The position numbers were made by a program, and so were the translations under genes. DNA of 62,002 nt, from NCBI GenBank assembly GCA_964393845.1, contig CAYMUX010000004.1, positions 1-62,002 on the forward strand, read 5' to 3'. This document shows positions 8,084 through 49,384 of the stretch, one piece after another (the stretch's first letter is position 1; each line of letters begins with the position of its first letter). The notes under the pieces were generated by a model that did no database searches, was not told the origin of the DNA, and was given only the letters and a program-made list of their open reading frames with translations. This DNA comes from an uncultured Nitrospiraceae bacterium. Lineage in GTDB: Bacteria > Nitrospirota > Thermodesulfovibrionia > UBA6902.

Positions 8084-8107
8084 ATTGACCTCCTTAACAT
8101 ATAGTTT

Positions 8108-8187: not shown

Positions 8188-8229
8188 GTGTAAATTATAA
8201 TTACACTTAAAGGATTAAGTTTACACTTA
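8188..8229. promoter_or_regulatory. candidate enhancer (UAS) elements
   Basis: GTGTAA-N7-TTACAC inverted repeat at 8188..8206. TTACACTTA is directly repeated at 8201 and 8221, 20 bp apart. The site is 65-100 bp upstream of the sigma-54 promoter. Confidence 0.3.
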
Positions 8230-8263
8230 TTCTGTTCTATTAGGTGGGATAGCCGAGAAATAA

Positions 8264-32034: not shown

Positions 32035-32298
32035 TTACGAAGTTAAGATATAGGCATACAATGTATAAAGCTGACAGCTCCAGCAAAGTGTATTATACGG
32101 AGTGTCATCAATATCCTGCGGCGTATGCACTGTCCACGGAGGCAATAGAGAAGGCTGAGTCCCATATACAAAATGACACGAATCACAGTCTATGTTGTTG
32201 ATCCCGAAATGAGGGTAATCGAGGGCACCCGCCTGGACCGCTATTAAGCTGATTACTATAGCTAAAATAATTGCCTTTATAATTACTGTTTCTTTCAT
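32035..32298 (-). pseudogene. truncated c-type cytochrome N-terminal fragment
   Basis: A signal-anchor is followed by ...YPHFGINNIDCDSCHFVYG...DIDDTPYNTLCWSCQ. One CXXCH is intact. The second motif reads CWSCQ and the frame stops 11 codons later. Confidence 0.45.
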
Positions 32299-32411
32299 TG
32301 TTTTTAAATTAATCATCATGCAATCTAATTTATCATTCATAATTCATAATTAACAATTTGTTGTTGTCAATCATTTCACCCTTGTGGTAAAGTATTTGCA
32401 AGAGGTTAAAT

Positions 32412-32660
32412 ATGGCATCAACTACTTTTGATACCCATTCATTTGTAAAAAAACTTAAAGAGTCAGGTTTTACCGAACAGCAAGCAGAAGCTTTGGCTGA
32501 TGCACAGTCTAAGCTTATTGATGAACGCCTTGCTACGAAACAAGATATCATGGATTTGCAACGTGATCTTAAAGAACTTGAAATGCGCCTTACTATCCGC
32601 TTAGGATCAATAGTCGCAGCCGGTATTATCATTGTAGCTGCTTTAGTCAAACTGTTATAA
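32412..32660 (+). CDS. DUF1640-like coiled-coil protein with C-terminal TM helix
   Basis: 82 aa: FDTHSFVKKLKESGFTEQQAEALADAQ...LKELEMRLTIRLGSIVAAGIIIVAALVKLL. Confidence 0.7.
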   Translation: MASTTFDTHSFVKKLKESGFTEQQAEALADAQSKLIDERLATKQDIMDLQRDLKELEMRLTIRLGSIVAAGIIIVAALVKLL

Positions 32661-32752: not shown

Positions 32753-33202
32753 TTATTTTTTCGGCATGTTTGGAGTTTGTTTATTATCTGTTAATTGCTT
32801 TTCATCAAGAGATGCTCTTTGAAACTCGATGTCAACGGAAGAGGACATCACTACAAAAATACGGCTGTTGTTGTCTTTCATGTCAGCAGGCGTCATAAAG
32901 AAACCATGCCGGTCCGTAGAGTAGCCCTGAGTATATCCGGTGATGCATTCACCATCAAAAAAAGTTACCTTAATCTTCCGGCCTCCACCGGGCACTGTTT
33001 CGTTATAGCTTTTTATATGATTTTTATCTCCTTCATGATCTTTAACGAAGAATATCGCCTTCAATTGGTCTACATCAACTTCTATAATTTCACCGTTAAT
33101 TTGTTCAAGATGAAAGCGTTTTTTATGCGGTAAAAAATCGTTGGTGCGGCCTTTCATTATGGTTCCGTTTATGAATTTTACTACTACCTTATTTAATTCC
33201 AT
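32753..33202 (-). CDS. hypothetical protein with two beta-rich repeats
   Basis: 149 aa with a GGAGGGA SD. VKFINGTIMKGRTNDF... and VTFFDGECITGYTQGY... look like an internal duplication. No family was recognised. Confidence 0.55.
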   Translation of the reverse strand: MELNKVVVKFINGTIMKGRTNDFLPHKKRFHLEQINGEIIEVDVDQLKAIFFVKDHEGDKNHIKSYNETVPGGGRKIKVTFFDGECITGYTQGYSTDRHGFFMTPADMKDNNSRIFVVMSSSVDIEFQRASLDEKQLTDNKQTPNMPKK

Positions 33203-33552
33203 AATTCCCTCCCTGACAGAAATTCAACATCAACGATTGAAAATTCATTAATAATAAATAGTTATAGGCTGTTTATTATTCATTACATACTCTTCTCATT
33301 TCTCCTCGGTATTTATACTGTACTCCTTTAGTGTTAATTCCTAATTTAACACTAAGGATTTGACTTGCAAGATTTATGCCTTTATGCTCCATAAAGCAAT
33401 TACGACCAATTGATTGATAATTCAGAGAGTTGTATGGATGATAGCTTTGCCTGAAATAAAGGACAGGTTAATTTTACGCAATTAGAAAGTTATATCCCGC
33501 AATAAAAAACACAAGCAGGGAGGCGGTTATCGCTGGCGCCTTTGACCTTAAG

Positions 33553-34392
33553 TCATTGGGTGAAGGCGTATAGGATACATTTGCTTATAACAGGACAGCT
33601 TCCACACTCCTTTGGCGGGGAGGAAAGCCCCTCTCTTATTCCCCGTCTTTTTTCAGATGAAAATATGTCTTTAAAGGACATAAATCGGATGTTGCCCATG
33701 GAAACGGGCAGAATAGGGCATGGGGTTACATTAAAATTACGTGATATGTATATCATGGTCTTTGCTCCGTTGCAGCCCCCTTCGTTTGGATTATCTTTTA
33801 AATAAATCAACTGCCACATAAAAGGATCATGAATCGTCAACTTAAGGCAGTCAAGCGGGATTTTTCTTATTTCTTTACTAACCCGGGACGCAGTCTCCGG
33901 GTCAGGATAAAATATCCCCCCCTCATCAACCCTCTGAATCGGGAACTTAAGCTCATTAATACTATTATCAATACAAAAGGAAATGACGGCAGGAAGGTCC
34001 TTGAAATTCTTTTCATTTAAATAAAAAGATAACCCAAACGGTAAGCCCCGGGCAATCAAACGCGATATCTCCGCCAATGAAGACTGTAAGTCCTCAAGCA
34101 GCCCAAACTCTATATACAGTTTTGTCAATTCAGTATCTTTTATAGTATCCGGATTAAACTGATCCAGCGCTGTGTTTTTCACAGTTAAATTAATTTTAAT
34201 GCGCTCGCTTCTCAATCTTTTCAGAATCCTAATGGTTTCGTTACTTAATGGAGTGGAAATGTCCCTCAAGTTTAGAACGAAGATTTTGGCTTCGATCAGT
34301 TCATCACAAATTCGCATTGCGATATCGGCATCGCATGTAGATGGATTAATGTCCCAATAAATGATGAAGGGGTTTATTAAGTTATTGTTCAT
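33553..34392 (-). CDS. SPASM-domain protein lacking the radical SAM CxxxCxxC motif (pseudo-rSAM partner)
   Basis: 279 aa. The N-terminus IIYWDINPSTCDADIAMRIC has no CxxxCxxC. The C-terminus GGCNGAKTM...TPCP...ECGSCPVISKC is SPASM/twitch-like. Confidence 0.7.
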   Translation of the reverse strand: MNNNLINPFIIYWDINPSTCDADIAMRICDELIEAKIFVLNLRDISTPLSNETIRILKRLRSERIKINLTVKNTALDQFNPDTIKDTELTKLYIEFGLLEDLQSSLAEISRLIARGLPFGLSFYLNEKNFKDLPAVISFCIDNSINELKFPIQRVDEGGIFYPDPETASRVSKEIRKIPLDCLKLTIHDPFMWQLIYLKDNPNEGGCNGAKTMIYISRNFNVTPCPILPVSMGNIRFMSFKDIFSSEKRRGIREGLSSPPKECGSCPVISKCILYAFTQ

Positions 34393-34429
34393 AGTTAGTT
34401 AATATCAAATGGATTTTGGCATTTGACAT

Positions 34430-35440
34430 TTATTCCCTGCGCCAGCAGTGCGGGTCAGGGTTGTTCATGTCTCCAGTAAGGGCAAGCGCCCTTGCAGTAC
34501 AGCCGCCGAGGCAGTCATCGTAATGCCCACAGTCAGCGCATTTACCCGTTGGAGTTTTATTTCTCATTTTTTCCAGGACAGGTGAGCTTCTCCACAAATC
34601 TTTAAGAGCGTCTCTCAAAATATTGCCTATAACTATCGGAATAAATCCACAGGGGGTTATATCCCCGTTCGACTTAATATTCAAGGAAAGCTTCCCGCAG
34701 ATGCTCCCCTTAACGATTGAATCTTTATCGTTTTTCCCCAGCAGAGCTATTATCGGATCATCTAATGATATCTCCAGTCCTCTCGTCCTTTGTTTTGCTT
34801 CCATTGCGTTACGATAGAATGAACTCCACTCTTCACTGCTTAAATCCAGGCTGTCTTTATTTGAATAACCCAGCCCGGAGCATTTGAAATTATGGAAATT
34901 CAATTGCCTGACCTGGTTCCTGACGGCAAACTCGATAAGCTCATGAATATCATTATGGTTGATCCTGCAAATAACGGTCGATATGGAGGTTTCAAGCCCT
35001 GCTTCGTTCAGGAATAACAGGGCTTGAACAGCCCGTTCATGGCTGCTTTTGATCCCCCTGAAGTCATCATGGATTTCGGCAATGTGACTATCTATGCTTA
35101 TTCCTACTTTTGAAAAGCCGCGTCTTTTGAGTTCAATCGCCTTTTCCCTGTCGAGCAGGTACCCGTTGCTGTTCATGGAGACCCGCAGGCCCAGCCTTGA
35201 AGCGTACTCTGAAATATCTGTAAGGTCCTTTCTTAAAATGGGCTCACCGCCGCCGAAATTGATTGAGAGCACACCGGCGTCAGCAACATCTTTAATGCAT
35301 TTGGAAAGCGATTCAAGAGAAAGCTCATCCAAAGGATCGTTCCTGCTGTAGCAATGGCTGCACTTGAAGTTGCACCTGTTTGTGACCGCCCAATTGATTA
35401 TGAGAGGAGCGCCTGGGAGAAAGTCATTCATATTTGACAT
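34430..35440 (-). CDS. radical SAM/SPASM domain peptide-maturase-type enzyme
   Basis: 336 aa with VTNRCNFKCSHCY (CxxxCxxC), GGEP and C-terminal CADCGHYDDCLGGCTARA. Confidence 0.9.
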   Translation of the reverse strand: MSNMNDFLPGAPLIINWAVTNRCNFKCSHCYSRNDPLDELSLESLSKCIKDVADAGVLSINFGGGEPILRKDLTDISEYASRLGLRVSMNSNGYLLDREKAIELKRRGFSKVGISIDSHIAEIHDDFRGIKSSHERAVQALLFLNEAGLETSISTVICRINHNDIHELIEFAVRNQVRQLNFHNFKCSGLGYSNKDSLDLSSEEWSSFYRNAMEAKQRTRGLEISLDDPIIALLGKNDKDSIVKGSICGKLSLNIKSNGDITPCGFIPIVIGNILRDALKDLWRSSPVLEKMRNKTPTGKCADCGHYDDCLGGCTARALALTGDMNNPDPHCWRRE

Positions 35441-35732
35441 ATTCCTTGTCTTTCAGCTCGGCGATAAATGCCTCTGCATCACTCTTCAGAACTTCTGGCT
35501 CAACATCGAATATCCTGATAAGTTCGGAAACTATTTCGTCAATTGTCTTTCCGTCACAGCGCTTCCATATCTCTGTCCCCAGAATATTAAGTGACAGCAT
35601 TTCACCGCCTGAGTAAAGGATCGAGGTCCCTATTTCCTCAACATCTTCTCCCTTTTCAAGACCTTCATAAGCCTGCGCCTTGTACTCGTCTTCTTCACGC
35701 CACATAACATCAGGATTCCTGAATATTTTCAT
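35424..35732 (-). CDS. PqqD-family (RRE-type) peptide chaperone
   Basis: 102 aa. It has NPDVMWREED...LSLNILGTEIWKRCDGKTIDEIVSELIRIFDVEPEVLKSDAEAFIAELKDKEYV. It overlaps the rSAM gene by 17 nt. Confidence 0.8.
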   Translation of the reverse strand: MKIFRNPDVMWREEDEYKAQAYEGLEKGEDVEEIGTSILYSGGEMLSLNILGTEIWKRCDGKTIDEIVSELIRIFDVEPEVLKSDAEAFIAELKDKEYVKYE

Positions 35733-35748
35733 TTATCATTCCGCCTTA

Positions 35749-36075
35749 TCAGTCGCCCTGGGCCGTTAGGGACGCGATAACAAGATTTTCCGTTGATGCA
35801 TTGCGTATGCCGTGGTCTACGAGAGCAGGGACGATCACGATCTTGCCGTTATCTATGACCTGTGTCTCCCCTGCCGCCATGAATTCTCCCCTCCCTTCCA
35901 TGACTATCCAGATATGGTTCCCGTGATGTGTATGGGTTGTTATCTCCTGTCCCGGTCTCATGCAGATAAGATTTATCTTTGAATGTTTGTCCGACCATAT
36001 TGTTTCATGGCTCCGTTTTTCTTCACTAAATTGTTTAAGCTTCGCAATGTCCAGTACCAAACTCTTGTTCTTCAT
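35749..36075 (-). CDS. cupin domain protein
   Basis: 108 aa with PGQEITTHTHHGNHIWIVMEGRGEF...VPALVDHGIRN cupin motifs. Confidence 0.8.
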   Translation of the reverse strand: MKNKSLVLDIAKLKQFSEEKRSHETIWSDKHSKINLICMRPGQEITTHTHHGNHIWIVMEGRGEFMAAGETQVIDNGKIVIVPALVDHGIRNASTENLVIASLTAQGD

Positions 36076-36150: not shown

Positions 36151-38058
36151 CTATCTTATCATTCTGTAATACCTTTCGAGAATCTCTGACATCCGGCTAA
36201 AAAAATAAAAAGACGTGGATACACGGATCTCCTCTGCATTTTCGACGGAGCCTGAGAATGTAACACCGAACCTAGAAGACAACCTGTTAGCGGCAGGAAA
36301 ATCTTTTGCCCCGTCCTGGTGTCTCCCTGCTGCAATCAATAGGCCCTTGCCATATTGAGAAAACCCGGTAATTGTTTCCAGCTCAGCATCTGAAAAATAG
36401 CATGCCGGACCTGATTCACCGAAAATGATCCAGAGCTGACTGTACTGCTCAAGCAATGATCGGGATATTTGAGGTGTTTCTTTTCTGTCCGTCAACTTTA
36501 TTTTAAAACCGTCCTTTGTCTCAATACTCTCATATGCGCTTCGACTGAAAGCGTCCCTGTCAGTTCCCGATCCACCGGCCATATTATAAATTAATATGTT
36601 TCTCGTGCTTCCCGATACATTATATTCTTCCAGCCATGCTGCGACATTTCTTATATATCTCCGGTTATCGTACTTATTTGCCGAACCTTCCATGAATCTC
36701 TCACCGCCGGAATCAAAGACAACGCCTCCCTGCCCTTCCACTGAATTGTTGTAGGTAGCGATAATACCTTTTCCGCCCGGATCCATAACAATCCTCACAT
36801 GTTTATCATGAGTCGCTTTCGTAATAACGGCCGAACCTCCTCCGGATATTGACCTGACGACCCTCAAAACAGGATTGCCGGTATCCACATATTTGGTAAA
36901 CACGAGATGCTGAAAAGAATATGCGATCAAGATAGTTCCAACGATGCATACGAAGATGTATAGAAAGAACACCCTCTTCCTGAATATCGTCCAGAACATT
37001 ATCATGGTGGGCATTGCCGTCACCGGGCCCCCTATAAGGAAGGCCAGTCCCGCCCCGCCGTTCATAGTGCCGTCAAGCGTGCTCTTGATATGGTAAAGAA
37101 TGCTCGAAGCGCTGATCTGGTGCAGGAATATGGGGACGGACCCAAAAGTGATCCATATTATGCTTAACTTGTCTTCCTGCCCGAACAGTTTATAAATCCA
37201 TTCATACGGCATATATCTCTGCACAATAATCCCCATCGCAACTCCAATGAGGACATACTTTCCTACAAGCCAGAGCATCTCCGATGACTTTGCCAGAAAG
37301 ACGATGAACATATTACCCGTCCGTGCCGCTATTCTGTTGCCGAATTTCTCCCTGCAATTGCACCTCAGTCGTTCGTCAGGATAATTATCATCATGAAAAT
37401 CACCTCTGGGGACCGCGCCTTCAATAAAAATAGTTTCTGTCTGAAAACCCTTGTTCCTGATGAGATGGGTCAGTACCCCGGCAAAAATACCCATCAAAAA
37501 CGCCGCAATAGTCCTGATCACCGTCCATTCCGGACCGAGGTCGCTGAGCGTAATCAGATATGTTGTCGGGCTCATCAGCGGAGAAGTTACAAGGAGGGAC
37601 ATAACGGGCGCTAACGGTAGTCCTGCAAACAGCAGACTTACCGCAGTCGTCAAAGTGCCGCAGGCGCACAGAGGAGTTAATAACCCTATCAGCGACGCTA
37701 AAAAAATGCTGAAGAAACCATGCCGGTTGAGAGTCCTTCTTAGTTTGACAGCGAGCTTGTATGTGCGGATGAAGCCGGCTAAAAGTATCCCGATTATAAA
37801 ATACGGCAAAATATCTTTTAATTCAGCAAGCAAACCATGTCCGTTGAAGATCATATCCCAAATCTCATTTCCCAGTAACACGGGAAACGCTTTTTGTGAT
37901 AACTCTGGTCGTACCGCCTGACCGGTCGGGCCGTAAACCCACACATGCCAAATTATCAGTAATAAAGATGCAAATACCATAAACAGGAGCGTCTTGTTAG
38001 CCGCCCTATGCGGCGTTCCGTGGACCCGGCACTCATTATTTTGTTTATTATTTTTCAT
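36151..38058 (-). CDS. ArsP/DUF318-type permease fused to a roughly 240-aa C-terminal soluble domain of unknown family
   Basis: 635 aa. The permease part has ILPYFIIGILLAGFIRTY and the vicinal-Cys motif TPLCACG. The C-terminal part (from about aa 395) has no TM segments and no motif I recognise. Confidence 0.7.
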   Translation of the reverse strand: MKNNKQNNECRVHGTPHRAANKTLLFMVFASLLLIIWHVWVYGPTGQAVRPELSQKAFPVLLGNEIWDMIFNGHGLLAELKDILPYFIIGILLAGFIRTYKLAVKLRRTLNRHGFFSIFLASLIGLLTPLCACGTLTTAVSLLFAGLPLAPVMSLLVTSPLMSPTTYLITLSDLGPEWTVIRTIAAFLMGIFAGVLTHLIRNKGFQTETIFIEGAVPRGDFHDDNYPDERLRCNCREKFGNRIAARTGNMFIVFLAKSSEMLWLVGKYVLIGVAMGIIVQRYMPYEWIYKLFGQEDKLSIIWITFGSVPIFLHQISASSILYHIKSTLDGTMNGGAGLAFLIGGPVTAMPTMIMFWTIFRKRVFFLYIFVCIVGTILIAYSFQHLVFTKYVDTGNPVLRVVRSISGGGSAVITKATHDKHVRIVMDPGGKGIIATYNNSVEGQGGVVFDSGGERFMEGSANKYDNRRYIRNVAAWLEEYNVSGSTRNILIYNMAGGSGTDRDAFSRSAYESIETKDGFKIKLTDRKETPQISRSLLEQYSQLWIIFGESGPACYFSDAELETITGFSQYGKGLLIAAGRHQDGAKDFPAANRLSSRFGVTFSGSVENAEEIRVSTSFYFFSRMSEILERYYRMIR

Positions 38059-38074
38059 TTCGTAATTCGTAATT
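38059..38074. repeat. tandem heptamer repeat (AATTACG x2)
   Basis: ttcgtaattcgtaatt fills almost the whole 14-nt gap between the YedE-like stop and the permease ATG. No SD is present there. Confidence 0.6.
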
Positions 38075-39179
38075 AATCCAGTCCCGTCTGGTACTCAGGC
38101 GCAAGCCCTTTATCTCTCTCACGATAGAGTAGTCCTATTATAAACAGAAAAACAAATCCGGCCAACACTGCAATCTTTCCCCAGAACGGGACCTCCGTGG
38201 AGGTCGCTGCGATTCCCCAGTTTTGCACAAGCGCTCCGCCGATGAGCATTCCCATCACCGCTGCTCCGGCATCGGTGTCACCCTGCCCTGAGAGTATTAA
38301 TTGTCTGAACGGGCAGCCTTTAATCAGCACTGAACCGAATCCTACAAGTCCCATTCCAAGCGCATCCCACAAATAATTTTCAGATAGACCCGCCTGTACA
38401 GTCATATCAAATGAGGCTTGCCCTGTCAGAAGATTTGCTGTCAGGGCCGTCAGGAAAAAAGAGCCGATTGCTATCAAAAGTCCGGTTGATTTCGGGCAGC
38501 CGTAAACTTCTTTCGGCCCCCATAAAAACAATCTTGCCAGTCCGCCCGTAATACAGAAGCCTGATATTTGAGCGAAGGAGCCGATAACCAATCCGAATAA
38601 CAACGACATCCAAACCGGCGCGTGAAGCGAGGCAGACCCCTTTGTGCTGGAATTGATAAACGGGGCCTGAATAATTAGCAGGACTAACAGGGTCAACATT
38701 AATACCGGGATGATAAAACCGTTTGCACGCTGAGCATCTGATGGTCTCCCGAGCCTGAAGCCCCCTTCAAGAATCTGCAAACCCGTCCAAACGCCGGCGG
38801 CAAGACCTATTGCGCCGGTAATCGCGGTAAGGTCTCCGGCAGATATTCTAAGGATCATTTTAATTGGACAGCCAACAAATACGGAACATCCGATAATCAA
38901 TAGAATGCCTACAAAAAATCTCAGGAGAGGTGAACTTCCCGATGTCGTTTTGAAATCCTTTGTCATTATTGATGTGATAAAAGAACCAAGCACAAATGCG
39001 ATGATCTCAGGCCTGATGTACTGCATGCGTATATCACTGTGCAGACCGACGGCCCCTGCAATGTTTCTCATAAAACAGGAGACACATATCCCCGTATTCG
39101 AAGGATTGCCGAAATATGAAAGCAGTACCGCCCCTATGCCGAGAATGCTCCCAGTCAATAAGAATTTTGTTTTACCCAC
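38073..39179 (-). CDS. YedE/YeeE family sulfur/selenium-compound transporter-like membrane protein
   Basis: 368 aa and polytopic. The N-terminal ...GNPSNTGICVSCFMRNIAGALGLH motif and a second CPFRQ-type half are typical of YedE/YeeE. Confidence 0.8.
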   Translation of the reverse strand: MGKTKFLLTGSILGIGAVLLSYFGNPSNTGICVSCFMRNIAGAVGLHSDIRMQYIRPEIIAFVLGSFITSIMTKDFKTTSGSSPLLRFFVGILLIIGCSVFVGCPIKMILRISAGDLTAITGAIGLAAGVWTGLQILEGGFRLGRPSDAQRANGFIIPVLMLTLLVLLIIQAPFINSSTKGSASLHAPVWMSLLFGLVIGSFAQISGFCITGGLARLFLWGPKEVYGCPKSTGLLIAIGSFFLTALTANLLTGQASFDMTVQAGLSENYLWDALGMGLVGFGSVLIKGCPFRQLILSGQGDTDAGAAVMGMLIGGALVQNWGIAATSTEVPFWGKIAVLAGFVFLFIIGLLYRERDKGLAPEYQTGLD

Positions 39180-39696
39180 AGGACCCTGCCAGCTTTCTTA
39201 AAAGATAATACACATTTTTCTTCGCCGTCTTCATATCCTGATCGCCCGGTTTTTTTGAGAGAGTCTCATTTATCCTCAACTTTGCTTCATTTATGGCAAT
39301 CTTTATTTTGTAACCCTGGAAGAACGGTGTCTTTTTATCCAGGTAATCCGGATTCAAGTCAACCGCGTCTTTATATTTATAAATGGCGCCAACAGCATCC
39401 TGCTTACGCATCATCACATCGCCCATCAGCATGTGAAGCTCCCCGTCATACGGATATTTTCCAGTCAGCTCATTCAGCAGGGCTTCTGCCTTCTGAAGGT
39501 TGTTTGTCTCTATTAGTTTTTTGAGCATGTTTAACTGATCGCCTGAAATTCCATCCGCTTCCGCTGCGTTTCTTGAGTGAGTTAATGAACTATTAATATT
39601 CTTTCCGGAATCACTGCGATATTCAGAGCTGACAACGGCAATGGCTGCAATGAATATCAGGATAAAAATTATAGAAAATTTGTCCAGCTTGTCCAT
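39172..39696 (-). CDS. TPR-like secreted/anchored protein
   Basis: 174 aa with an N-terminal TM/signal. It has the TPR-like helices ...LQKAEALLNELTGKYPYDGELHMLMGDVMMRKQDAVGAIYKYKDAVDLNPDY. Confidence 0.55.
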   Translation of the reverse strand: MDKLDKFSIIFILIFIAAIAVVSSEYRSDSGKNINSSLTHSRNAAEADGISGDQLNMLKKLIETNNLQKAEALLNELTGKYPYDGELHMLMGDVMMRKQDAVGAIYKYKDAVDLNPDYLDKKTPFFQGYKIKIAINEAKLRINETLSKKPGDQDMKTAKKNVYYLLRKLAGSCG

Positions 39697-40254: not shown

Positions 40255-40308
40255 TTTCGACACCACCTTTCATCAAGTCTTTTCATAATTATAACAAATA
40301 TTACACCG

Positions 40309-41223
40309 TCAATATTTTTGATACGGCGGCATATTTGTCCGTTTTGCGAGGTCCCTTACAATGTCATAATCCTCATCCCTGACCCCTGCAAAACCTTCAA
40401 GACGCGTCCTCCTGAGAACACTCACCGTTTCTCCGTCTATCTCCACAGTGTCCGACTCTTTGAGCTCCAGCAGGGCCTTTTTAAATCTTTCAGCAAATGA
40501 GTCCTCTACCCTCTGCGTGTAACCGAACGTGCAGTACGGAATCGGATCGCCTTTTGCGATTATCCTGAAATCATCAGAGACAATTTTACCGTCTTCGATC
40601 ATCTTTTCAAAATCGAGCATCTGAAAAGCCCCCGCGTCGAATTTGCCGTAAAGAACGCTGTATATGACTTTCTCGTGTTTATATGTGCCGGTCGGTATCG
40701 TATAGAAAGACAGATCATCCTCCGGATTGATTCCCTCGCTAAGCATCAGGTCATACTGCTGTAAATAACCCGTGGGCCCCAGCATCGGGCCGAAGATCAT
40801 GCTCCGGCCCTTCAGGTCTTTTACCGTCTTTATATCACTGTCTCTTGTCGTTACAATAGCGCCGGCTGATTTAAAACCGAGCGATCCCTGGACATCCGCA
40901 GTCAGGACCTTCACTCCGTGGAAGCGGTTCAGTATGATATAAAGCAGTGAATTGGTATGAGTGAAATCCAGGTTCCCGGCTTCCTTTGTAAATTGAATCG
41001 TATTAATAGCTACCGCCTCTGTCCTTACACCCAGCTTTTTCCCGAGATATTCTGTCAACGGCCTGAACCTGTATAGTGTCTCTTCCTCGCTGTTGCATAT
41101 CATGTAGCCGATTTTTATTACCTTCTCATTCTTGACTGAGGAAGGCTCCGGCCGGCAGGATAAAAATATTACTATTATGAAAAGTACGAACATTGAAATG
41201 ACCGTTGTTTTCTTGCCTGTCAA
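40309..41223 (-). CDS. PhnD-like substrate-binding lipoprotein (third paralog)
   Basis: 304 aa with the lipobox-like FLSC. KIGYMICNSEEET...GPTGYLQQ... fits the PhnD-type pattern. Confidence 0.7.
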   Translation of the reverse strand: MTGKKTTVISMFVLFIIVIFLSCRPEPSSVKNEKVIKIGYMICNSEEETLYRFRPLTEYLGKKLGVRTEAVAINTIQFTKEAGNLDFTHTNSLLYIILNRFHGVKVLTADVQGSLGFKSAGAIVTTRDSDIKTVKDLKGRSMIFGPMLGPTGYLQQYDLMLSEGINPEDDLSFYTIPTGTYKHEKVIYSVLYGKFDAGAFQMLDFEKMIEDGKIVSDDFRIIAKGDPIPYCTFGYTQRVEDSFAERFKKALLELKESDTVEIDGETVSVLRRTRLEGFAGVRDEDYDIVRDLAKRTNMPPYQKY

Positions 41224-41343: not shown

Positions 41344-42264
41344 CTACCTGAGTCCATGCATTCTCCTCAGCAGATAATATACCCCGCCCAGGGCAATGAT
41401 AATAAAACCGGTGTAAACATACACAGTACCGGGGTCCCTCGTTATCTGTATGCCCACAAACGGCCGGCCTGCCGTGTCACGGTCCGTTGCCGTATGGTAG
41501 AAATTCATCCCCCCCCACTTCAGGGGACTGTTCACACCAACCTTGCCCTCCGCGACCATTTCAGAATCCCGGAGCAAGCCCATATCCACCCAGGTCTTTT
41601 TTATAACGGGGTCCTGGTATGCAACCAGTTTAAACGCAAAGGGAAAACCCTCCGGGAGGGTGCCGGCCCCCGACGTATCGGCGCTGCCTATAAAATCACC
41701 TTTATAATATACGCTCAATTTAAGCTTCTTCGCGTAGAGTTCGAGTTCATCCGCCCGCACCGTATATTCTTCCATAACAAAGTCTTCCCCGGTCTTAAGA
41801 ATAAATAATCCAAACTTCTCTTCGCCCCTTAACACTCCCACCTTGACCGGGACCGGATAGTATTCCTCATAAAGTTTTTTAATCATGATCTTAACACCCG
41901 GGGAAATATCCTTTGCAAGGTCCCACCGGTAGACCTTATCAGCAACGTCCCCTTCATAGATATTCACCGTGGCCACGAAGCCGAGAGAACTGATGCCGCC
42001 GCCGATAAAGGCGGTTATGACGCCTACGTGTATCAAGAGAATAGGTTTTGAAAGTATCTTTATTCTCTGAATGGTGCATAAGGAGAGATTTATAACCAGC
42101 AGCCACAACAGTCCGCTGATAATATTCCATATGAGAGGGACATTCCCCTCTGTAAAAGTTGTCACCGCAAGCAGCAGGCACAGTACCGGCAAAAGACCTA
42201 TTGTCAGCTCTTTGGATGAAAGTAAATAGTATGGCCATCTGATTCCTTTCCCGGAAGATTTCAT
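41344..42264 (-). CDS. ResB-like cytochrome c biogenesis family protein (short form)
   Basis: 306 aa. It has LSSKELTIGLL..., HVGVITAFIGGGIS, NIYEGD, VNSPLKWGGMNFYH and a C-terminal TM (DPGTVYVYTGFIIIALGGV). Confidence 0.65.
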   Translation of the reverse strand: MKSSGKGIRWPYYLLSSKELTIGLLPVLCLLLAVTTFTEGNVPLIWNIISGLLWLLVINLSLCTIQRIKILSKPILLIHVGVITAFIGGGISSLGFVATVNIYEGDVADKVYRWDLAKDISPGVKIMIKKLYEEYYPVPVKVGVLRGEEKFGLFILKTGEDFVMEEYTVRADELELYAKKLKLSVYYKGDFIGSADTSGAGTLPEGFPFAFKLVAYQDPVIKKTWVDMGLLRDSEMVAEGKVGVNSPLKWGGMNFYHTATDRDTAGRPFVGIQITRDPGTVYVYTGFIIIALGGVYYLLRRMHGLR

Positions 42265-42284: not shown

Positions 42285-42881
42285 TCATATAAGTTTTTTC
42301 TTCTTCAAAAAATCCCTTGCAGCCCTTCTGACTTTTTCCCCTGATTTAACGGCCTTGACCACCTTATTGAAATCCGTATCATTTGAGATGCCGTTCAGCT
42401 TATTAATGACCCTTGGAAGCGCTGGAAAATTAATGAGCACATCCTCAGTTATCACCGCAGCATAAAAATATTTGCCGCTGCCCTTCTCTTCAGGCAAAAA
42501 ACCGAACGGGTTTAGCCAGATAAGGTTCATTCTTTCCCTGAATTCTTTTTTAGATATGTCATAATCTTTTTCTTTGTCTTTGCTATTGGGCATGTTCAGC
42601 ATACTCATCGCGTGATCAGTGTTTTCTATGATTATTCCCAGTTCTGCTTTCTTGACGGAATCATAAAGCTCTTTCGCATTGTCAAACACCTTGATGTTCA
42701 CCGTGGTCCCGGTCCTCTCGTTTATAAGCACGGAAACGAGTTCGGCAAGCAGATTTTCATTCACCGAATTTGTTATGCCTATATTGATAATCCTGCCCAC
42801 ACAGGCCTGCGATCTTACACCGAAAGACAGGAGCACAGAGAGCAATAAAATTAAAGCTGTTGTCCTCATTTTCCGTTTCAT
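42285..42881 (-). CDS. secreted substrate-binding-domain-like protein (glycine-betaine/OpuAC-like, short)
   Basis: 198 aa with a signal peptide. There is only weak pattern resemblance (IGITNSVNENLLAELVS...ELGIIIENTD). Confidence 0.35.
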   Translation of the reverse strand: MKRKMRTTALILLLSVLLSFGVRSQACVGRIINIGITNSVNENLLAELVSVLINERTGTTVNIKVFDNAKELYDSVKKAELGIIIENTDHAMSMLNMPNSKDKEKDYDISKKEFRERMNLIWLNPFGFLPEEKGSGKYFYAAVITEDVLINFPALPRVINKLNGISNDTDFNKVVKAVKSGEKVRRAARDFLKKKKLI

Positions 42882-42893: not shown

Positions 42894-43592
42894 TTATTCT
42901 TTTGTGTCAATTGTAATGTCATAACTATTTCTCTCTCCCTCAATAGTTATTTCACCGGTAATACGGTAATGAGACCGGAGAGGAAATTCCCCGGCGTATC
43001 CAGTGAAGTATTTCCCGGGGGAAAGATAGAGTGTGTATTCCCCCTTCTCATCCGTCCATGCCGATACATAAGCAGGTATCTCAGGCATGTCTTTGCTCCT
43101 GGCGGCTATCGCATAAACATATGCGACAGGGGCGCCCTTGTGATCGATGATCCTTCCTGTTAGTTTATAGTAATCTTCCCGTGTTTTCCTGACAAGACGG
43201 GCAGCCTCTCTGATATCAGCTATTTTAAAGTCCTTCTCAATTACCTTGCCTGCCTCAAGTTCAATCTCAAGCGGTTCACCTGAATGCTTGTCTCCGGTTG
43301 CCAGCGGCCCGTATTTCTCACCCTTTCGAAGCCGTGCCACGGCCCACCACTTTCCGGCAGGCACAGTCATGCTGAACCTGCCCAGTGTATCAGTCCTGGC
43401 GGATATGAAATCCGCGGGCCTCCGCGTGTCAGTTGTCCTGTAAATAAACAGCTCGGCGCTTTTTACGGCCTTACCATCCACGTCTGTTACCCGTCCTTTT
43501 AGAACGGAGTTTTCCAGTGCTATGGCTGGATTAAAAGTCAAAGTGATTACGAATATAATAACGGCACTTATTATGATTCTGTTAAATTTCAC
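42894..43592 (-). CDS. secreted protein with two carboxypeptidase-regulatory-like (CarboxypepD_reg) domains
   Basis: 232 aa with a signal peptide. LKGRVTDVDGKAVKSAELFIY... and LTGRIIDHKGAPVAYVYAIA... are starts typical of this Ig-like fold. Confidence 0.7.
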   Translation of the reverse strand: MKFNRIIISAVIIFVITLTFNPAIALENSVLKGRVTDVDGKAVKSAELFIYRTTDTRRPADFISARTDTLGRFSMTVPAGKWWAVARLRKGEKYGPLATGDKHSGEPLEIELEAGKVIEKDFKIADIREAARLVRKTREDYYKLTGRIIDHKGAPVAYVYAIAARSKDMPEIPAYVSAWTDEKGEYTLYLSPGKYFTGYAGEFPLRSHYRITGEITIEGERNSYDITIDTKE

Positions 43593-46138
43593 TCTCCGGT
43601 CTCCACCTTTTCATTTAAAACCGGTTCAAACACAACCGTGCCTATGCCGGGCTCTCTTCTTGCGTCAAAGATGGTCCCGGCAGGACCTGCAGTTCCCCAC
43701 CAGTTTTCCTTTGCGTTAACATCCTCCGTATTAAAATCACCTGCCCTGACATTATAATTTGTATTGGAATAAATATTGTTCCTTCTGATCGTCAGCCCTC
43801 CTCCGCCTTCCCGGACAAATATCCCTGTTTCATTTCCGTATATATCATTCTTTTCTATCAGCGCATTTGCCATGAAGGCCCTCATCCCGATACCGTTCTC
43901 CTTAAACAGAGAGCCGGTAATTTCAATGGGCCCGCTCCTGAACCTCATCCCCCCCAAGTTCCTGATAAACCGGGAGTTATTTACTTTCAGGGCGGTAAAA
44001 TGACTGTGGACCCCCCAGGTCGCATGTTCAAAGTCACAATATAAAATCACACTGCCGTCCGCATGCTCAAGGAGTATCTCGTCCCAAAAGCTGCTGTCAC
44101 TCTTTTCAAGTGAGGTAAAGGTGATCCTCCTGTCTTTTTCTCCTGCTGCAATGAGCCGCGCACTGCTGATCTTCATACCCGCGCCCTTTGAAAGATAGAC
44201 CTTTGTCCCGGGGGCAATTGTGAGCGTAGTACCGGAACGCACCTCAACCTGGTCCCGGATGTGAACACTGTTATTCCATGTAATATTGGACAAGACCGTT
44301 CTCACAGGCCATGTATAATTCACCGGTCCTTTTTTCGCAGGCAGATAATCGACCTTGCCCCTGCCCTGTTCATCACCTTTATCAAATATTGCATCATCTG
44401 TGTTACCGTCACCCCACCAGTTCATCAGCGCAGAGATATCCGACGCGCCTTCATTTTCAATGGCGTATATACCGTTTCCTGTTATTGAGTTTTCAGTAAT
44501 GGTCCCGGTAAAAGACTGTATGCCTATGCCCCTCTCCCCATTGTCTGAAATAACATTGCCTTTAATCACCGCTCCGGAAGAGAGTATATTTATCCCGTTA
44601 AAGCCGCTGCCCTGTATAAAATTCCCGCTGAGATCAACATTGTCGCTGTTTTTCAGGGCAACGCCTGTCTCAAAGTTGTTCGTAATGACATTACCGCTGA
44701 ACCGTCCGTAAAATGAATCATTGACCATAAGGCCAGAGCGGTTGCAGTCAATGATATTTTCCCTGACCACCACGGCGCCTTCCCTGATCTTAAATCCCTC
44801 ATCCATATTGCCGAGGATTTTATTGTTTGACGCAGACAGACTTGAGCGAAAGAAATTGACGCCGTTGATATTGTTATAGACATAGTTATCGGTAAAGATG
44901 ATTTCCGAGTCCCTGCCCTTGATCCCGCTCTTATTGTTAAAGATATAGTTGCCTTTCATCTCCACTGCCGACTCCTGAAACTGTATGGCCCGGTAATTAT
45001 TGCTAAGCACAGCCCCCTGCACCATTACATTGGAGAAATGGAAATGGAGCCCCCGGTAGGCGTCCTCTATCCGGCAGTATTCCACCAGGTTCTGCGCGCC
45101 GTCGCTGTTCATTATATTTATGGCGTCCCAGTCACCCATTGAACGTATTATTCCCGCTGACCGGAATATGATCGGATTATCTCTCGTTCCCTTTGCAATA
45201 AGTACCCCCTGCATCAGGAGCCCGTTCTCCCCTATGCCGTCGCCGTTTGTGTCCTTCTTTGTGAACTCGATAACGGTGCCTGGAACAATAACCAGCCTGA
45301 CCTTTTCAGGGACCCTTATCAGTCCGCTTATTTCAATCCTGCCTCTCCAGACCGTGTCTTCAAGCAGCACCTGGTCTTCATACCGCCTGGTTATCTCTTT
45401 ATGCGGAACAGTGTAATTTTCAATAATATCAGGGCCAGTCCTCCGGCATGACCGGTCGTCTCTTGCATGTACTTTCCCGGCATCCCCGGTTTTCTTTCGG
45501 GACGTTAAGACGTCTTTGTCAATAACGCCATACAGATACAAATCCTTTTTTCTGTTGCCCTCCACAAAGCTGCTGCCGTAATTTACTTTTGCCCCGTTTA
45601 ATTCAAAGACCCCGTAGTCGTTCCCGGTTATCAGGGTATTTTCCATCTGTACAAGCGACTGCACTCCATGCGCCGCAAGGCCATAACGGTTCCCGGTTGA
45701 GACAGAGTCCCGTATATAAAGAACACCTTTAAATATGTGAATACCTGTTTCCGCATTCCGGATGGCGCACCATTTTATGTCGGCGGTCCCTCCGTCAATA
45801 ACAATTCCGGCCCATCCGTCTGATGCCACACTGTCCTTTATATGAAACACAACCTGATGCCCTTCCGAGCCCTCGATGTTCAGTCTGCCCCTGATCATAA
45901 TCTCTGTCAGGGATGAAAGATATTCAGGATCGGTCTTGGTCCTGTCGGAAGGTTCTATGTTTACCTTTGTGTCCGGCAGGATGGTCAGCGTAACGCCTTG
46001 AGGGACGAGGATGTCGTTATTAACAGAAACCTCACCGCTCCAGACGGTATCTTTTATCAGGGTCTCTCCCCTGGACGTAAGCGGGAATAATAAAACTGCG
46101 AGAGCGCAGGACAAAATTGCTATTCTCAGAAAAGTCAT
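43589..46138 (-). CDS. secreted right-handed parallel beta-helix (NosD/PbH1-like) protein, three modules
   Basis: 849 aa with a signal peptide. The entry motif DTVW(S/R)G...(V/I)P.G.TLTI.PGT recurs three times. Many N/G-rich 22-24-aa coils follow, plus NWWG motifs. Confidence 0.8.
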   Translation of the reverse strand: MTFLRIAILSCALAVLLFPLTSRGETLIKDTVWSGEVSVNNDILVPQGVTLTILPDTKVNIEPSDRTKTDPEYLSSLTEIMIRGRLNIEGSEGHQVVFHIKDSVASDGWAGIVIDGGTADIKWCAIRNAETGIHIFKGVLYIRDSVSTGNRYGLAAHGVQSLVQMENTLITGNDYGVFELNGAKVNYGSSFVEGNRKKDLYLYGVIDKDVLTSRKKTGDAGKVHARDDRSCRRTGPDIIENYTVPHKEITRRYEDQVLLEDTVWRGRIEISGLIRVPEKVRLVIVPGTVIEFTKKDTNGDGIGENGLLMQGVLIAKGTRDNPIIFRSAGIIRSMGDWDAINIMNSDGAQNLVEYCRIEDAYRGLHFHFSNVMVQGAVLSNNYRAIQFQESAVEMKGNYIFNNKSGIKGRDSEIIFTDNYVYNNINGVNFFRSSLSASNNKILGNMDEGFKIREGAVVVRENIIDCNRSGLMVNDSFYGRFSGNVITNNFETGVALKNSDNVDLSGNFIQGSGFNGINILSSGAVIKGNVISDNGERGIGIQSFTGTITENSITGNGIYAIENEGASDISALMNWWGDGNTDDAIFDKGDEQGRGKVDYLPAKKGPVNYTWPVRTVLSNITWNNSVHIRDQVEVRSGTTLTIAPGTKVYLSKGAGMKISSARLIAAGEKDRRITFTSLEKSDSSFWDEILLEHADGSVILYCDFEHATWGVHSHFTALKVNNSRFIRNLGGMRFRSGPIEITGSLFKENGIGMRAFMANALIEKNDIYGNETGIFVREGGGGLTIRRNNIYSNTNYNVRAGDFNTEDVNAKENWWGTAGPAGTIFDARREPGIGTVVFEPVLNEKVETGE

Positions 46139-46201: not shown

Positions 46202-46247
46202 TAAAAAATGGCCGGGTCTTTTTACATGTAAATCATAGACCCGGCCC
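46202..46247 (-). terminator. intrinsic terminator after the 20-codon gene (copy B)
   Basis: On the minus strand, GGCCGGGTCT pairs with AGACCCGGCC around an 18-nt loop, followed by AUUUUUUAU. Confidence 0.65.
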
Positions 46248-46276: not shown

Positions 46277-46339
46277 TTAACACGGATGCACAACGGCCCT
46301 TCCGACTATCCTCGGCGCAACATATTTTATTTTCTTCAC
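46277..46339 (-). CDS. unannotated 20-aa peptide (M)KKIKYVAPRIVGRAVVHPC, copy B
   Basis: GGGAGGTGG SD lies 6 nt before the GTG. An in-frame ATG at 46360 would add MNRGRWN but has no SD. It is a paralog of 49402..49464 and ends at TAA. Confidence 0.6.
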   Translation of the reverse strand: MKKIKYVAPRIVGRAVVHPC

Positions 46340-46376: not shown

Positions 46377-47240
46377 TCATTTTTTCTTTTCGGTATCTTC
46401 TTTCATCTTGTGTTTCATTTCTTCCTTAATATTTTTTTCAGGCGTCTGCTCAGGCTGCTGGCCCTTCGGCCCTCTCTCAAAATGCCTTACTACTTTTATA
46501 GTTATGCCCTGTGTATTCTCCCCCGTTTTAACAGCAACGGCAGCAGGCCTTTCTTCACCGTAACCACCCATTACCGAGCCTGCAACAGGCGGGCCTCCTC
46601 CGTATATATCCCTGACTCTCAGATAATAATTACCGCCCTTGTCCACTGCGATGAAGTACTTTCCATCCGGCCCTGTCTTGTACGACGTAAACGGCGGAAT
46701 GCCGGTCATCGTCTCTGTAATATAGGCAAATACTATGGCCCCTCCGACAGGGTCGCCGCTCATGTCGACGATTGTGCCGGATATCCCGCTGACCCCTTCG
46801 GCGATTTTCCTCTTGAACGGAACGGCCTCTGAAACAACTCCAACACTCTGGCTTTTATCTTTTTCAATTATATAGGCAACAGCAATTCCGTCCTTGTCAC
46901 GTCTTATAAAAAAGTAATCACCGTCCTGAGGGGGACCGATCTTTTCACCTGACATCCTTTTTATGGCGCCCATGTAATACTTACCCACAGGCAGCATAAT
47001 ACGGAACTTGCCCTCTTCATCGAGGTCTCCTATCTGGTCCGGGGTCCTCACGAACTTGTCAGGGTCCGGCGCCGGCCCTGTCGCAGCATCAAAGAACACC
47101 ACCATCCCGCCTGACATAGGACCTCCGTCCTTGATCATAATTTGCCCTGAGAGCCAGCCGATAGCGACTTCCTGCGCAGCAATATGTGATGCAAAGACAA
47201 ACATGATGAACAAAAATACAACAATGCCCTTTCTCACCAT
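46377..47240 (-). CDS. secreted CarboxypepD_reg-like protein with Lys/Glu-rich tail
   Basis: 287 aa with a signal peptide. LSGQIMIKDGGPMSGGMVVFF... and ISGTIVDMSGDPVGGAIVFAY... mark the domain starts. The tail is EKNIKEEMKHKMKEDTEKKK. It is a paralog of 49550..50134. Confidence 0.7.
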   Translation of the reverse strand: MVRKGIVVFLFIMFVFASHIAAQEVAIGWLSGQIMIKDGGPMSGGMVVFFDAATGPAPDPDKFVRTPDQIGDLDEEGKFRIMLPVGKYYMGAIKRMSGEKIGPPQDGDYFFIRRDKDGIAVAYIIEKDKSQSVGVVSEAVPFKRKIAEGVSGISGTIVDMSGDPVGGAIVFAYITETMTGIPPFTSYKTGPDGKYFIAVDKGGNYYLRVRDIYGGGPPVAGSVMGGYGEERPAAVAVKTGENTQGITIKVVRHFERGPKGQQPEQTPEKNIKEEMKHKMKEDTEKKK

Positions 47241-49334: not shown

Positions 49335-49384
49335 AATAAAGGAGGATATCCATTCAATAAATGAACAAGATATCCTCCTTTATT
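49335..49384 (-). terminator. 16-bp perfect hairpin after the 20-codon gene (copy A); attenuator/terminator-like
   Basis: aataaaggaggatatc pairs with gatatcctcctttatt around an 18-nt loop. The hairpin ends 8 nt before the ATG of 47242..49326. The flank is A/U-rich but has no clean U tract. Confidence 0.5.

Follow-up and report, generated by a model that had tools for sequence, protein, structure and literature searches.

We analyzed a 62,002-nt stretch of DNA from an uncultured Nitrospiraceae bacterium (contig CAYMUX010000004.1 of assembly GCA_964393845.1; hereafter, the window), the minus strand of which encodes a GeoRSP cassette consisting of a PqqD-family protein, a radical S-adenosylmethionine (rSAM)/SPASM enzyme, and a SPASM-only paralog. 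Our analyses revealed that the cassette forms one end of a conserved gene cluster, and that a family of 20-residue peptides ending in His-Pro-Cys (HPC peptides), with two members in the window, exists, is under selection, and is physically linked to GeoRSP genes. Based on this comparative evidence, we propose that GeoRSP functions as the cytoplasmic maturation module of the larger cluster, with the HPC peptide as its most likely substrate, an assignment that we consider probable.

A GeoRSP cassette and a linked family of HPC peptides

The identity of the cassette was established with curated family models. TIGR04303 aligns with the rSAM/SPASM protein over positions 3–325 of its 325 positions and scores 576.3 bits (cutoff 400), and TIGR04302 scores 147.8 bits with the PqqD protein (cutoff 100). 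TIGR04304 is by far the best match of the SPASM-only protein, yet at 181.6 bits it stays under its cutoff of 300; the same model reaches 394.6 bits with the homolog from Geobacter hydrogenophilus, which passes, and 211–221 bits with intact Nitrospirota homologs, which also fail. Judging from these scores, the shortfall of the window protein is mostly a clade effect of a clade-tuned model and partly a reflection of its damaged C-terminus. By its model matches the cassette is a true GeoRSP system, in agreement with a first-pass annotation of the window that had named this family. The four minus-strand open reading frames (ORFs) described there, which include a Cupin_2 gene, are all present, with gaps of 16 and 37 nt and one overlap of 17 nt. 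So are its two motifs: CNFKCSHC lies within RCNFKCSHCYS (CxxxCxxC) of the 336-aa rSAM protein, which also has a complete C-terminal SPASM Cys set, and CGSCPVISKC occurs in the 279-aa protein, the N-terminus of which has no CxxxCxxC. Pfam domains follow the same pattern (Cupin_2; PqqD; Radical_SAM and SPASM; SPASM alone).

For comparison, 33 loci were retrieved from species-representative genomes with the SPASM-only alignment; contig ends cut many of them, so that absences are weak evidence. They come from Nitrospirota metagenome-assembled genomes, from Geobacteraceae, including Pelotalea chapellei DSM 13688, Geobacter hydrogenophilus DSM 13691, and Geobacter sp. AOG1, and from one genome of the candidate phyla radiation (CPR; Portnoybacteria). 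The order PqqD, rSAM/SPASM, SPASM-only on one strand is common to the window and the 33 genome loci, the PqqD gene lies directly upstream of the rSAM gene in 30 of the 33, and tight packing is usual, with overlaps of mostly 4–17 nt. Given this shared order and the usual tight packing, the arrangement is far beyond chance.

CxxxCxxC is found in none of 30 aligned members of the SPASM-only family. An AlphaFold (AF2) model of the closest intact homolog (mean predicted local confidence, pLDDT, 80.7; predicted TM-score, pTM, 0.82) superposes over its full length on the peptide-modifying rSAM/SPASM enzymes SuiB (TM-score 0.70), PqqE (0.69), SkfB (0.63), and anSME (0.60), and according to this model the protein is a pseudo-rSAM, with a complete radical-SAM fold and a lost SAM cluster. 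The first-pass annotation correctly noted the missing rSAM motif, but the loss goes further than that, the SPASM domain of the window protein being broken too. The family is rare, with ~70 clusters (50% identity) at E ≤ 1e-30 among 1.84 billion representatives, and the window's protein is known from one contig only.

What is the substrate of GeoRSP? None is recorded in NCBIfam, which holds no precursor model, or in the literature searched, consistent with the first-pass annotation; full-text searches turned up nothing of relevance on GeoRSP, its TIGR models, the motif of the peptide, or the combination of genes. That annotation had also seen no precursor-like ORF inside or beside the cassette, and none is present there in the window; in nearly all of the 33 genome loci the intergenic spaces of the cassette are too small to hold one. 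Because PqqA-type precursors fall under ORF-calling thresholds, all intergenic ORFs of 12–90 aa in the genome loci were clustered without prior assumption. The top family, found in seven genome loci, reads MKKxKYxxPxIVGxAxVHPC-stop, and when the 33 genome loci, locus L001, and the window were translated in six frames, no ORF with a terminal HPC-stop fell outside it. The window contains two copies of 20 aa, MKKIKYVxPRIVGxAVVHPC, on the same strand as the cassette (Table 1). They sit upstream, at 10.5 and 13.7 kb from the PqqD gene, and are in substance candidates for the precursor that the first-pass annotation had allowed it might have missed. Each copy has a strong Shine–Dalgarno sequence, is followed by a hairpin, and precedes a NosD-like gene, and in Geobacteraceae and Nitrospirota the peptide gene is found ahead of a NosD-like gene, at the cluster's 5' end. 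The rSAM and SPASM-only genes flank it in the CPR genome locus (L034). A 38-aa ORF downstream of the cassette (33276–33392) was considered as a precursor and rejected, as it is not conserved. NCBIfam models gave no match to the peptide even at E ≤ 10, and an exact look-up of ten peptide sequences, including those of cultured Geobacter isolates, found none in a collection of 15 billion proteins. Within NCBIfam, this protein collection, and the literature searched, the HPC peptide family is undescribed and has never been annotated.

The peptide family extends well beyond these genomes. A degenerate DNA pattern encoding only Y..P.[IV]V....[IV]HPC-stop was scanned over metagenome contigs and matched at least 120 of them, compared with a chance expectation of a handful by our own information-content estimate; only 3 of the ~125 matches listed fall outside the family. 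At least 133 peptide instances with at least 111 distinct sequences were recovered, 17–21 aa in length (mode 20), all with a Shine–Dalgarno (SD)-like motif upstream. Positions that the pattern leaves free are conserved nonetheless among the matches listed: Gly at −8 in 91%, Ala/Ser at −6 in 94%, Lys/Arg at −11 in 82%, and an N-terminal MKK. Third codon positions are nearly saturated (~1.9–2.0 bits) where the first and second positions are fixed, and Ser at −7 is encoded by both the AGY and the TCN codon families, from which we conclude that purifying selection acts on the ORF and that it is translated. Immediately ahead of the stop there is always a Cys codon and never TGA/selenocysteine (Sec) (133/133 among the matches listed). 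The 80 nt downstream of the peptide fold more stably than random windows of the same loci (−27.9 versus −20.7 kcal/mol, p = 4e-18), indicating a family-wide hairpin.

In at least 11 metagenome contigs, as in L034, the peptide gene is situated between the GeoRSP rSAM and SPASM-only genes, and the rSAM genes flanking the in-cassette peptide reach the TIGR04303 cutoff of 400, with 448 bits (a metagenome contig) and 461 bits. A short candidate precursor gene is thus genetically linked to GeoRSP inside the cassette in at least 12 loci, and within the same cluster in the window and seven genome loci. The compact gene order is YedE, PqqD, rSAM, peptide, SPASM-only, and a TIGR01977 cysteine desulfurase. 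Among the matches listed, YedE is present in 5/5 compact loci that extend far enough upstream of PqqD, and the desulfurase in 9/9 that extend far enough downstream (444 bits, cutoff 377), its next-best match being the selenocysteine lyase SclA. The CPR cassette is minimal, having neither cytochrome nor NosD-like genes. PhoH-like, TsaD, and RsmA genes near the compact system were rejected as members, being housekeeping genes that reflect lineage synteny only. Among the matches listed, the remaining contigs carry giant multiheme cytochrome genes directly upstream of the peptide in 41 cases and NosD-like/CarboxypepD_reg genes in ~35, the same arrangement that surrounds the peptide in the window. 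One metagenome contig, L071 (Ga0315282_10001853, 652–8702), has three HPC-peptide genes, each paired with a giant cytochrome or NosD-like gene; the module of peptide and envelope protein is repeatedly duplicated.

We infer from these comparisons how an intact system might work, from recognition of the peptide and its chemistry, with possible involvement of a chalcogen, to export and a role in the envelope. Discrete lasso-type recognition elements (RREs) for peptides that are made by the ribosome and modified after translation (RiPPs) recognize the leader motif [Y/W]xxPx[L/V/I/F/A] (PMC13381572). The N-terminal half of the HPC peptide, Y-x-x-P-x-[V/I], matches this motif in sequence, and the GeoRSP PqqD protein shows weak matches to lasso PqqD models. 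Docking of the peptide on PqqD is proposed because of this motif match and because PqqD is itself a discrete RRE. The PqqD protein would dock the leader and present a core of ~8–9 residues, V-G-S/x-A/S-x-V-H-P-C-COOH, to the rSAM/SPASM enzyme, which would cleave SAM, abstract a hydrogen from the core, and modify it at or through the invariant C-terminal Cys. An intramolecular thioether crosslink or a C-terminal oxidative modification appears likeliest, and insertion of a chalcogen into the peptide is possible. The SPASM-only paralog may contribute its auxiliary clusters as an iron–sulfur partner, binding the thiolate or passing on electrons or chalcogen. YedE and the SclA-type desulfurase could supply sulfur or selenium to, or into, the product, and such delivery is probable because YedE and, in the compact form, the TIGR01977 desulfurase accompany the system. 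Export to the envelope would then fall to the ArsP-type permease or, in other loci, to a major facilitator superfamily (MFS) transporter, and it is in the envelope that the NosD-like beta-helix proteins, the binding proteins, and the giant multiheme cytochromes of the cluster would act. A bolder version of this proposal would hold that GeoRSP, YedE, and an SclA-type desulfurase make a new peptide-derived sulfur/selenium small molecule from His-Pro-Cys, exported as a ligand or cofactor for the NosD-like/cytochrome machinery of anaerobic Geobacteraceae, Nitrospirota, and some CPR; we regard it as doubtful.

Several observations weigh against a GeoRSP–peptide partnership of this kind. Part of the constancy of Y, P, [IV], and HPC among the metagenome sequences was imposed by the search pattern. 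Most metagenome peptide loci have no GeoRSP gene within the contig, so that a GeoRSP-independent role is possible, and in the window the peptide genes adjoin NosD-like genes at 10.5–13.7 kb from the PqqD gene. Two Geobacteraceae loci, L025 and L030, cover the region upstream of the NosD-like gene and have no HPC peptide there; it may be encoded elsewhere in those genomes or have been lost. The closest characterized relatives of the rSAM enzyme are tetrapyrrole enzymes (NirJ2, 193 bits; AhbD, 188 bits), not peptide maturases. With regard to the chalcogen, YedE is "a possible Se-related transporter" by prediction only (PMC9312934), and the desulfurase might serve Fe–S cluster supply only. Finally, the SPASM-only gene of the window is broken, and this copy may do nothing.

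Could the HPC peptide be something other than a GeoRSP substrate? It could be an envelope-related or regulatory micro-protein, for example an upstream leader/attenuator or a small partner of NosD-like proteins and cytochromes, with GeoRSP acting on another substrate, such as a tetrapyrrole, as in the case of its nearest relatives NirJ and AhbD, or a full-size protein of the cluster. The terminator-like hairpins that follow the peptide genes, with NosD-like genes next, would suit such a function, as would the 41 metagenome loci (among the matches listed) in which the peptide comes right after giant cytochromes, the lack of a nearby GeoRSP gene in most loci, the heme-rich cluster with its ResB-like protein, and the rank of NirJ2 and AhbD as the best non-family matches of the rSAM enzyme. 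Amino-acid-level conservation with synonymous codon turnover over three phyla is, however, unlike an attenuator, and in at least 12 independent loci, the minimal CPR cassette among them, the peptide gene is flanked by the rSAM and SPASM-only genes. Its YxxPx[V/I] leader matches the motif bound by discrete PqqD-type RREs, a PqqD peptide chaperone would have no role in a tetrapyrrole pathway, and the NirJ and AhbD scores are far under the cutoff of 500. A non-substrate role therefore seems unlikely to us. Less likely still is the first-pass reading of an orphan four-gene maturase cassette (cupin, PqqD, rSAM, SPASM-only), bounded by a hairpin and without a cis-encoded precursor, which agrees with the lack of a precursor inside or directly beside the cassette in the window and of a substrate in NCBIfam or the searched literature, but runs counter to the comparative data: the cluster around the cassette is conserved, same-strand candidate precursors lie upstream and, in at least 12 other loci, in the cassette, the cupin tracks the permease rather than the trio, and the hairpin has no terminator features on the cassette strand.

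The damaged SPASM-only gene of the window

The consensus C-x2-C-x5-C-x-G-G-C-R-G-R...D-P-A-C is found at the C-terminus of the SPASM-only protein in all 29 database and all 33 genomic homologs. The window instead reads CGSCPVISKC-ILYAFTQ-TGA-LKVKGASDNRL-PAC-VFYCGI. The SPASM Cys set of its ORF is hence incomplete: only CX2CX5C remains, another residue stands in place of the fourth Cys of CX2CX5CX3C, and the last Cys comes after the TGA (33553–33555), beyond which the frame stays open for 20 more codons, up to a TAA at 33490. When aligned with the DNA of its closest relative, the window is ~85% identical up to AAATGTATC, followed by 54 nt without similarity; the alignment picks up again at the PAC codons and includes a shared stop position. 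The block preserves length and has no counterpart in the ~60 homologs that were inspected directly; likewise, the alignments of 150 library representatives extend over the full-length C-terminus. CKGGCR of the family lines up with C326-K-G-G-C330-R of anSME, and the C330 equivalent is absent from the window ORF. From the anSME structure, we take the missing Cys to be a ligand of auxiliary cluster I and the Cys past the stop to be the last ligand of auxiliary cluster II. A readthrough protein would align with positions 2–292 of the 293 of TIGR04304 at 183 bits, a gain of only 1.5 bits. Because the SPASM motif of this gene is damaged, the system in the window may be inactive unless the lesion is an assembly error.

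A genuine inactivating lesion is the most likely of the origins weighed for the 54-nt block, by our estimate somewhat above an even chance. Simple rearrangements did not account for it. An in-place inversion was rejected, as an nhmmer profile of 33 homologous blocks matched neither strand at 33520–33573; the reverse strand does encode GGYRWR, which resembles GGCRGR, yet the un-inverted sequence would keep three stops. Compensating frameshifts were likewise rejected, given that the other two forward frames contain no GGCRGR-like sequence. No donor copy, as expected for a template switch, turned up when the window and 1.1 Mb of related loci were searched.

It is possible, though we give it clearly less weight, that the block and its TGA are an artefact of assembly or consensus calling, and that the organism has an intact, functional gene. 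The block is unique among the ~60 homologs, with the library representatives all full-length; the rest of the 28-kb cluster is intact, including both precursor copies; flanks, terminal PAC, and stop position are preserved as expected from a normal homolog; and the protein was found on a single contig. On the other hand, a length-exact, in-frame stretch of unrelated sequence is a rare product of an assembler, and no donor sequence is present in the window or the 1.1 Mb of related loci.

Recoding offers a third explanation, in which the TGA is decoded as Sec or read through, yielding a 300-aa protein that keeps the terminal Cys, with Sec replacing, four residues on, the missing fourth Cys. The open frame of exactly ancestral length, with PAC kept, conforms to this idea, and Sec or Cys at the TGA would bring the SPASM Cys count back to seven. 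A hairpin begins 11 nt past the TGA, its 3' arm coinciding with the 3' edge of the non-homologous block, a YedE selenium transporter gene belongs to the same cluster, and TGA-C is a leaky stop context. Nevertheless, none of the 33 genomic and 29 database homologs has a TGA or Sec in this region, the 150 representatives being full-length with Cys, and the hairpin, with 5 bp, no G at either of the first two positions of its 11-nt loop, and a fold z of −0.25, is a weak one, so that neither Cys/Sec-aligned homologs nor a selenocysteine insertion sequence (SECIS) could be identified. Rfam returned no match, the gain in the hidden Markov model (HMM) score is the 1.5 bits noted above, and neither tRNA-Sec nor other Sec machinery was found in the window. 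We judge recoding very unlikely.

The conserved cluster around the cassette

The cassette is the 3' end of a ~28-kb single-strand array (33553–61886; Table 1) with a core of ~12 genes that is conserved between Nitrospirota and Geobacteraceae, as assessed by ORF clustering and tblastn over the 33 genome loci; it is not the orphan of the first-pass annotation. Besides the counts given in Table 1, the rSAM gene was found in 33 loci, and the cupin and permease genes in 20 each. Cupin and ArsP-type permease are co-present or co-absent in every locus (20/20), and the cupin is missing from the compact form; loci without them have an MFS transporter and a short NosD-like lipoprotein in their place. 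Because its presence tracks the permease in every locus, we consider the cupin an accessory of the permease, not a member of the cassette as first annotated.

Table 1. Features of the window discussed in the text (TM, transmembrane; counts refer to the 33 genome loci)
Feature	Position	Strand	Remarks
AT-rich inverted repeat	33326..33357		3 G-C pairs; without T-tract on minus strand
In-frame tail past TGA	33490..33552	minus	LKVKGASDNRLPACVFYCGI then TAA; keeps terminal PAC Cys at ancestral spacing
Aberrant 54-nt (18-codon) block	33520..33573	minus	replaces conserved GGCRGR...D segment; contains the TGA
GeoRSP SPASM-only pseudo-radical-SAM ORF	33553..34392	minus	279 aa; ends at TGA 33553-33555; TIGR04304
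GeoRSP radical SAM/SPASM enzyme	34430..35440	minus	336 aa; TIGR04303; Pfam Radical_SAM + SPASM
GeoRSP PqqD-family protein, discrete RiPP recognition element	35424..35732	minus	102 aa; TIGR04302; PF05402 2.7e-17
Cupin_2 protein	35749..36075	minus	108 aa; PF07883 6e-14
ArsP/SO_0444-type permease with ~240-aa C-terminal domain, candidate exporter	36151..38058	minus	635 aa; PF03773 3.7e-35; NF033936 5.6e-32
YedE-family putative selenium transporter	38073..39179	minus	368 aa; TIGR04112 377.6 bits (cutoff 200); 23/33 loci
TPR protein	39172..39696	minus	174 aa; 22/33 loci
PhnD-like periplasmic binding protein	40309..41223	minus	304 aa; PF12974 4e-42; weak TIGR04553 (putative selenate-binding) match; 23/33 loci
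ResB-like membrane protein	41344..42264	minus	306 aa; short PF05140 match; 21/33 loci
OpuAC-like lipoprotein	42285..42881	minus	198 aa; 21/33 loci
CarboxypepD_reg-fold protein	42894..43592	minus	232 aa; 19/33 loci
NosD-like right-handed beta-helix protein, downstream of peptide copy 1	43589..46138	minus	≤849 aa; PF13229 3.6e-36; PF05048 7.6e-22; 19-22/33 loci
GC-rich stem and U-tract after peptide copy 1	46203..46246	minus	GGCCGGGTC / GACCCGGCC; −22.2 kcal/mol, z = −1.7
Candidate precursor, copy 1	46277..46339	minus	(GTG)M-KKIKYVAPRIVGRAVVHPC then TAA; SD GGGAGGTGG; alternative ATG 46360
CarboxypepD_reg-fold protein, duplicated module	46377..47240	minus	287 aa
Second NosD-like beta-helix protein with CarboxypepD_reg domain, downstream of peptide copy 2	47242..49326	minus	694 aa
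16-bp perfect hairpin directly after peptide copy 2	49335..49384	minus	−30.9 kcal/mol, z = −6.8, 0/200 shuffles
Candidate precursor, copy 2	49402..49464	minus	MKKIKYVPPRIVGQAVVHPC then TGA; SD AAAGGAGGTGA; alternative ATG 49467
CarboxypepD_reg-fold protein upstream of peptide copy 2	49550..50134	minus	194 aa
Surface-type protein (fn3, DUF2341, SBBP beta-propeller repeats)	50236..57666	minus	2,476 aa
Giant multiheme c-type cytochrome, 5' end of array	57642..61886	minus	≥1,414 aa; 28 CxxCH

The C-terminal domain of the permease (36151–36912) is an alpha/beta domain of ~240 aa that is conserved together with the permease (AF2 model, pLDDT 78.6). A functional assignment by Foldseek was attempted and set aside, the only match being a weak one (TM-score ~0.5) to a non-catalytic domain of the Pseudomonas metallopeptidase IMPa. 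Toward the 5' end, relatives of the 2,476-aa surface-type protein occur upstream of the peptide in 10 metagenome loci (among the matches listed), and the giant cytochrome probably runs on beyond the edge of the window. G+C content rises from 0.38–0.45 elsewhere in the window to ~0.50 at 50000–62002, in step with the two giant genes. A ParE/RelE-family toxin gene (39767–40081, minus strand; PF05016 1.6e-19) and an overlapping putative antitoxin gene of 65 codons (40069–40266) have been inserted between the PhnD-like and TPR genes; this insertion is found in 0/33 related loci. Inspection by eye, not an HMM, identified a membrane protein encoded in L003 (1454–2182), and also in L002, L016, L028, and L032, as RcnA/NicO-like; it has a His-rich loop, HHYGQHTHDHTDHHHHH, and is accompanied in these clusters by a TPR protein after the ResB-like gene. 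This hints at a metal (Ni/Co-type) theme beside sulfur/selenium in some clusters. The extHIJKLMNOPQS selenite/tellurite cluster of G. sulfurreducens was considered as a counterpart and rejected, as it comprises a different gene set.

At the other end of the array, the hairpin at 33326–33357 that the first-pass annotation took as the 3' boundary of the cassette is a real inverted repeat (12 pairs including one G–T, 8-nt loop, −13.0 kcal/mol, z = −2.7, matched by 3/200 shuffles). Being AT-rich, ~200 nt past the cassette stop, and without a T-tract on the cassette strand, it is not a canonical terminator for the cassette, and the boundary role was not borne out. Directly downstream of the cassette lies a gene for a DUF6982 protein (32753–33202, minus strand; PF22478 7e-27), found there in 0/33 related loci and hence outside the system. 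Farther on, a 101-aa ORF (32035–32340, minus strand) with a signal/TM segment and one CxxCH looks like a truncated cytochrome; its relatives measure 344 aa in L007, where the gene directly follows the SPASM-only gene, and 1,380 aa in L005. Together with the damaged SPASM-only gene, this truncated ORF suggests that the cluster's 3' end is a site of local gene decay. An 82-aa CCDC90-like (DUF1640-type) coiled-coil ORF (32412–32660, plus strand) overlaps a longer, 130-aa minus-strand ORF that is probably spurious.

Relation to known systems and significance

How does the system compare with others? The cassette agrees with the GeoRSP definition (TIGR04302/TIGR04303/TIGR04304) in its three proteins, their order, and the taxa, Geobacteraceae plus Nitrospirota. 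That definition, however, holds no precursor, no link to YedE or a desulfurase, and no envelope cluster, all of which are added here. By analogy, the proposed mode of action, in which one rSAM/SPASM enzyme works close to the C-terminal end of the peptide, most resembles those of mycofactocin and pyrroloquinoline quinone (PQQ), to which GeoRSP would add a degenerate paralog and a sulfur/selenium supply arm. Mycofactocin biosynthesis (MftA, MftB, MftC) likewise combines a precursor of very small size, modified at its invariant C-terminal residues, with a discrete PqqD-type RRE and one rSAM/SPASM enzyme, and its product is a small peptide-derived molecule rather than an antibiotic, as proposed here. 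Unlike MftA, which ends in Val-Tyr, the window peptide ends in His-Pro-Cys; the window enzyme scores 157.9 bits with the MftC model (cutoff 265); GeoRSP has an extra pseudo-rSAM partner; and its context is YedE, desulfurase, permease, and envelope proteins instead of MftD, MftE, and MftF. The PQQ system (PqqA, PqqD, PqqE) shares a ~20-aa precursor of a size that escapes annotation, a PqqD chaperone, and an rSAM/SPASM enzyme, and, in the AF2 model, PqqE was named the best structural match of the SPASM-only paralog (TM-score 0.69). In contrast to PQQ loci, no pqqB, pqqC, or pqqF genes are present, the HPC peptide has no Glu...Tyr pair, and the PqqE and PqqD models give only 142 bits (cutoff 381) and 33.5 bits (cutoff 46).

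Other systems share single features. SynChlorMet (ScmD, ScmE, ScmF) also pairs one PqqD-family protein with two paralogous rSAM/SPASM-fold proteins, but both of its enzymes keep the radical SAM cluster that the second GeoRSP protein has lost, and scores are 125 and 114 bits against a cutoff of 400. The TIGR04347 pseudo-SAM/SPASM family provides a precedent for an rSAM/SPASM fold without CxxxCxxC in which the SPASM clusters are kept; it is nonetheless a different family, matching the window's active rSAM at 167 bits (cutoff 525) and the SPASM-only protein not at all. The discrete RREs of lasso peptides (B1 proteins) bind leaders with YxxPx[L/V/I/F/A] (PMC13381572), equivalent to Y-x-x-P-x-[V/I] of the HPC peptide, but GeoRSP has no lasso cyclase or leader peptidase, and the 8–9-residue core has no macrolactam acceptor. 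Sactipeptide/ranthipeptide maturases and the thio(seleno)oxazole maturase SbtM are rSAM/SPASM enzymes that act on Cys/Sec of short peptides, with SbtM, from Geobacter relatives, as a precedent for a radical SAM enzyme that works on a peptide containing a chalcogen. By comparison, the HPC peptide has a single Cys and never Sec, and all of these models stay far under their cutoffs: StsB scores 131 against 625, and SbtM is outside the 25 best matches of the window enzyme (91 against 350 for the L034 rSAM). The heme d1/alternative heme models TIGR04055, TIGR04545, TIGR04051, and TIGR04546 give 193, 188, 153, and 156 bits against cutoffs of 500–650. Assignment to a cofactor pathway with a known substrate, the outcome that the first-pass annotation had set against its own reading, was thus not obtained, heme d1, AhbD, PQQ, and mycofactocin models all remaining below their curated cutoffs.

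GeoRSP was already a named family, functionally uncharacterized; the candidate substrate and the sulfur/selenium and envelope context are new here. For the window itself, where the SPASM-only gene is broken or mis-assembled, a functional annotation is unwarranted without a check of the reads. For the family, comparative evidence nominates a synthesizable 20-residue substrate that gene callers have never called, the minimal six-gene unit (YedE, PqqD, rSAM, peptide, SPASM-only, desulfurase) could be expressed heterologously, and the system exists in cultured hosts, namely Geobacter hydrogenophilus DSM 13691 and Geobacter sp. AOG1. Being tied to sulfur/selenium handling as well as to giant multiheme cytochromes, the system hints that a small molecule takes part in the envelope redox or metalloid chemistry of anaerobes. 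If the chalcogen reading is true, the product would represent a new class of chalcogen cofactor derived from a ribosomal peptide.

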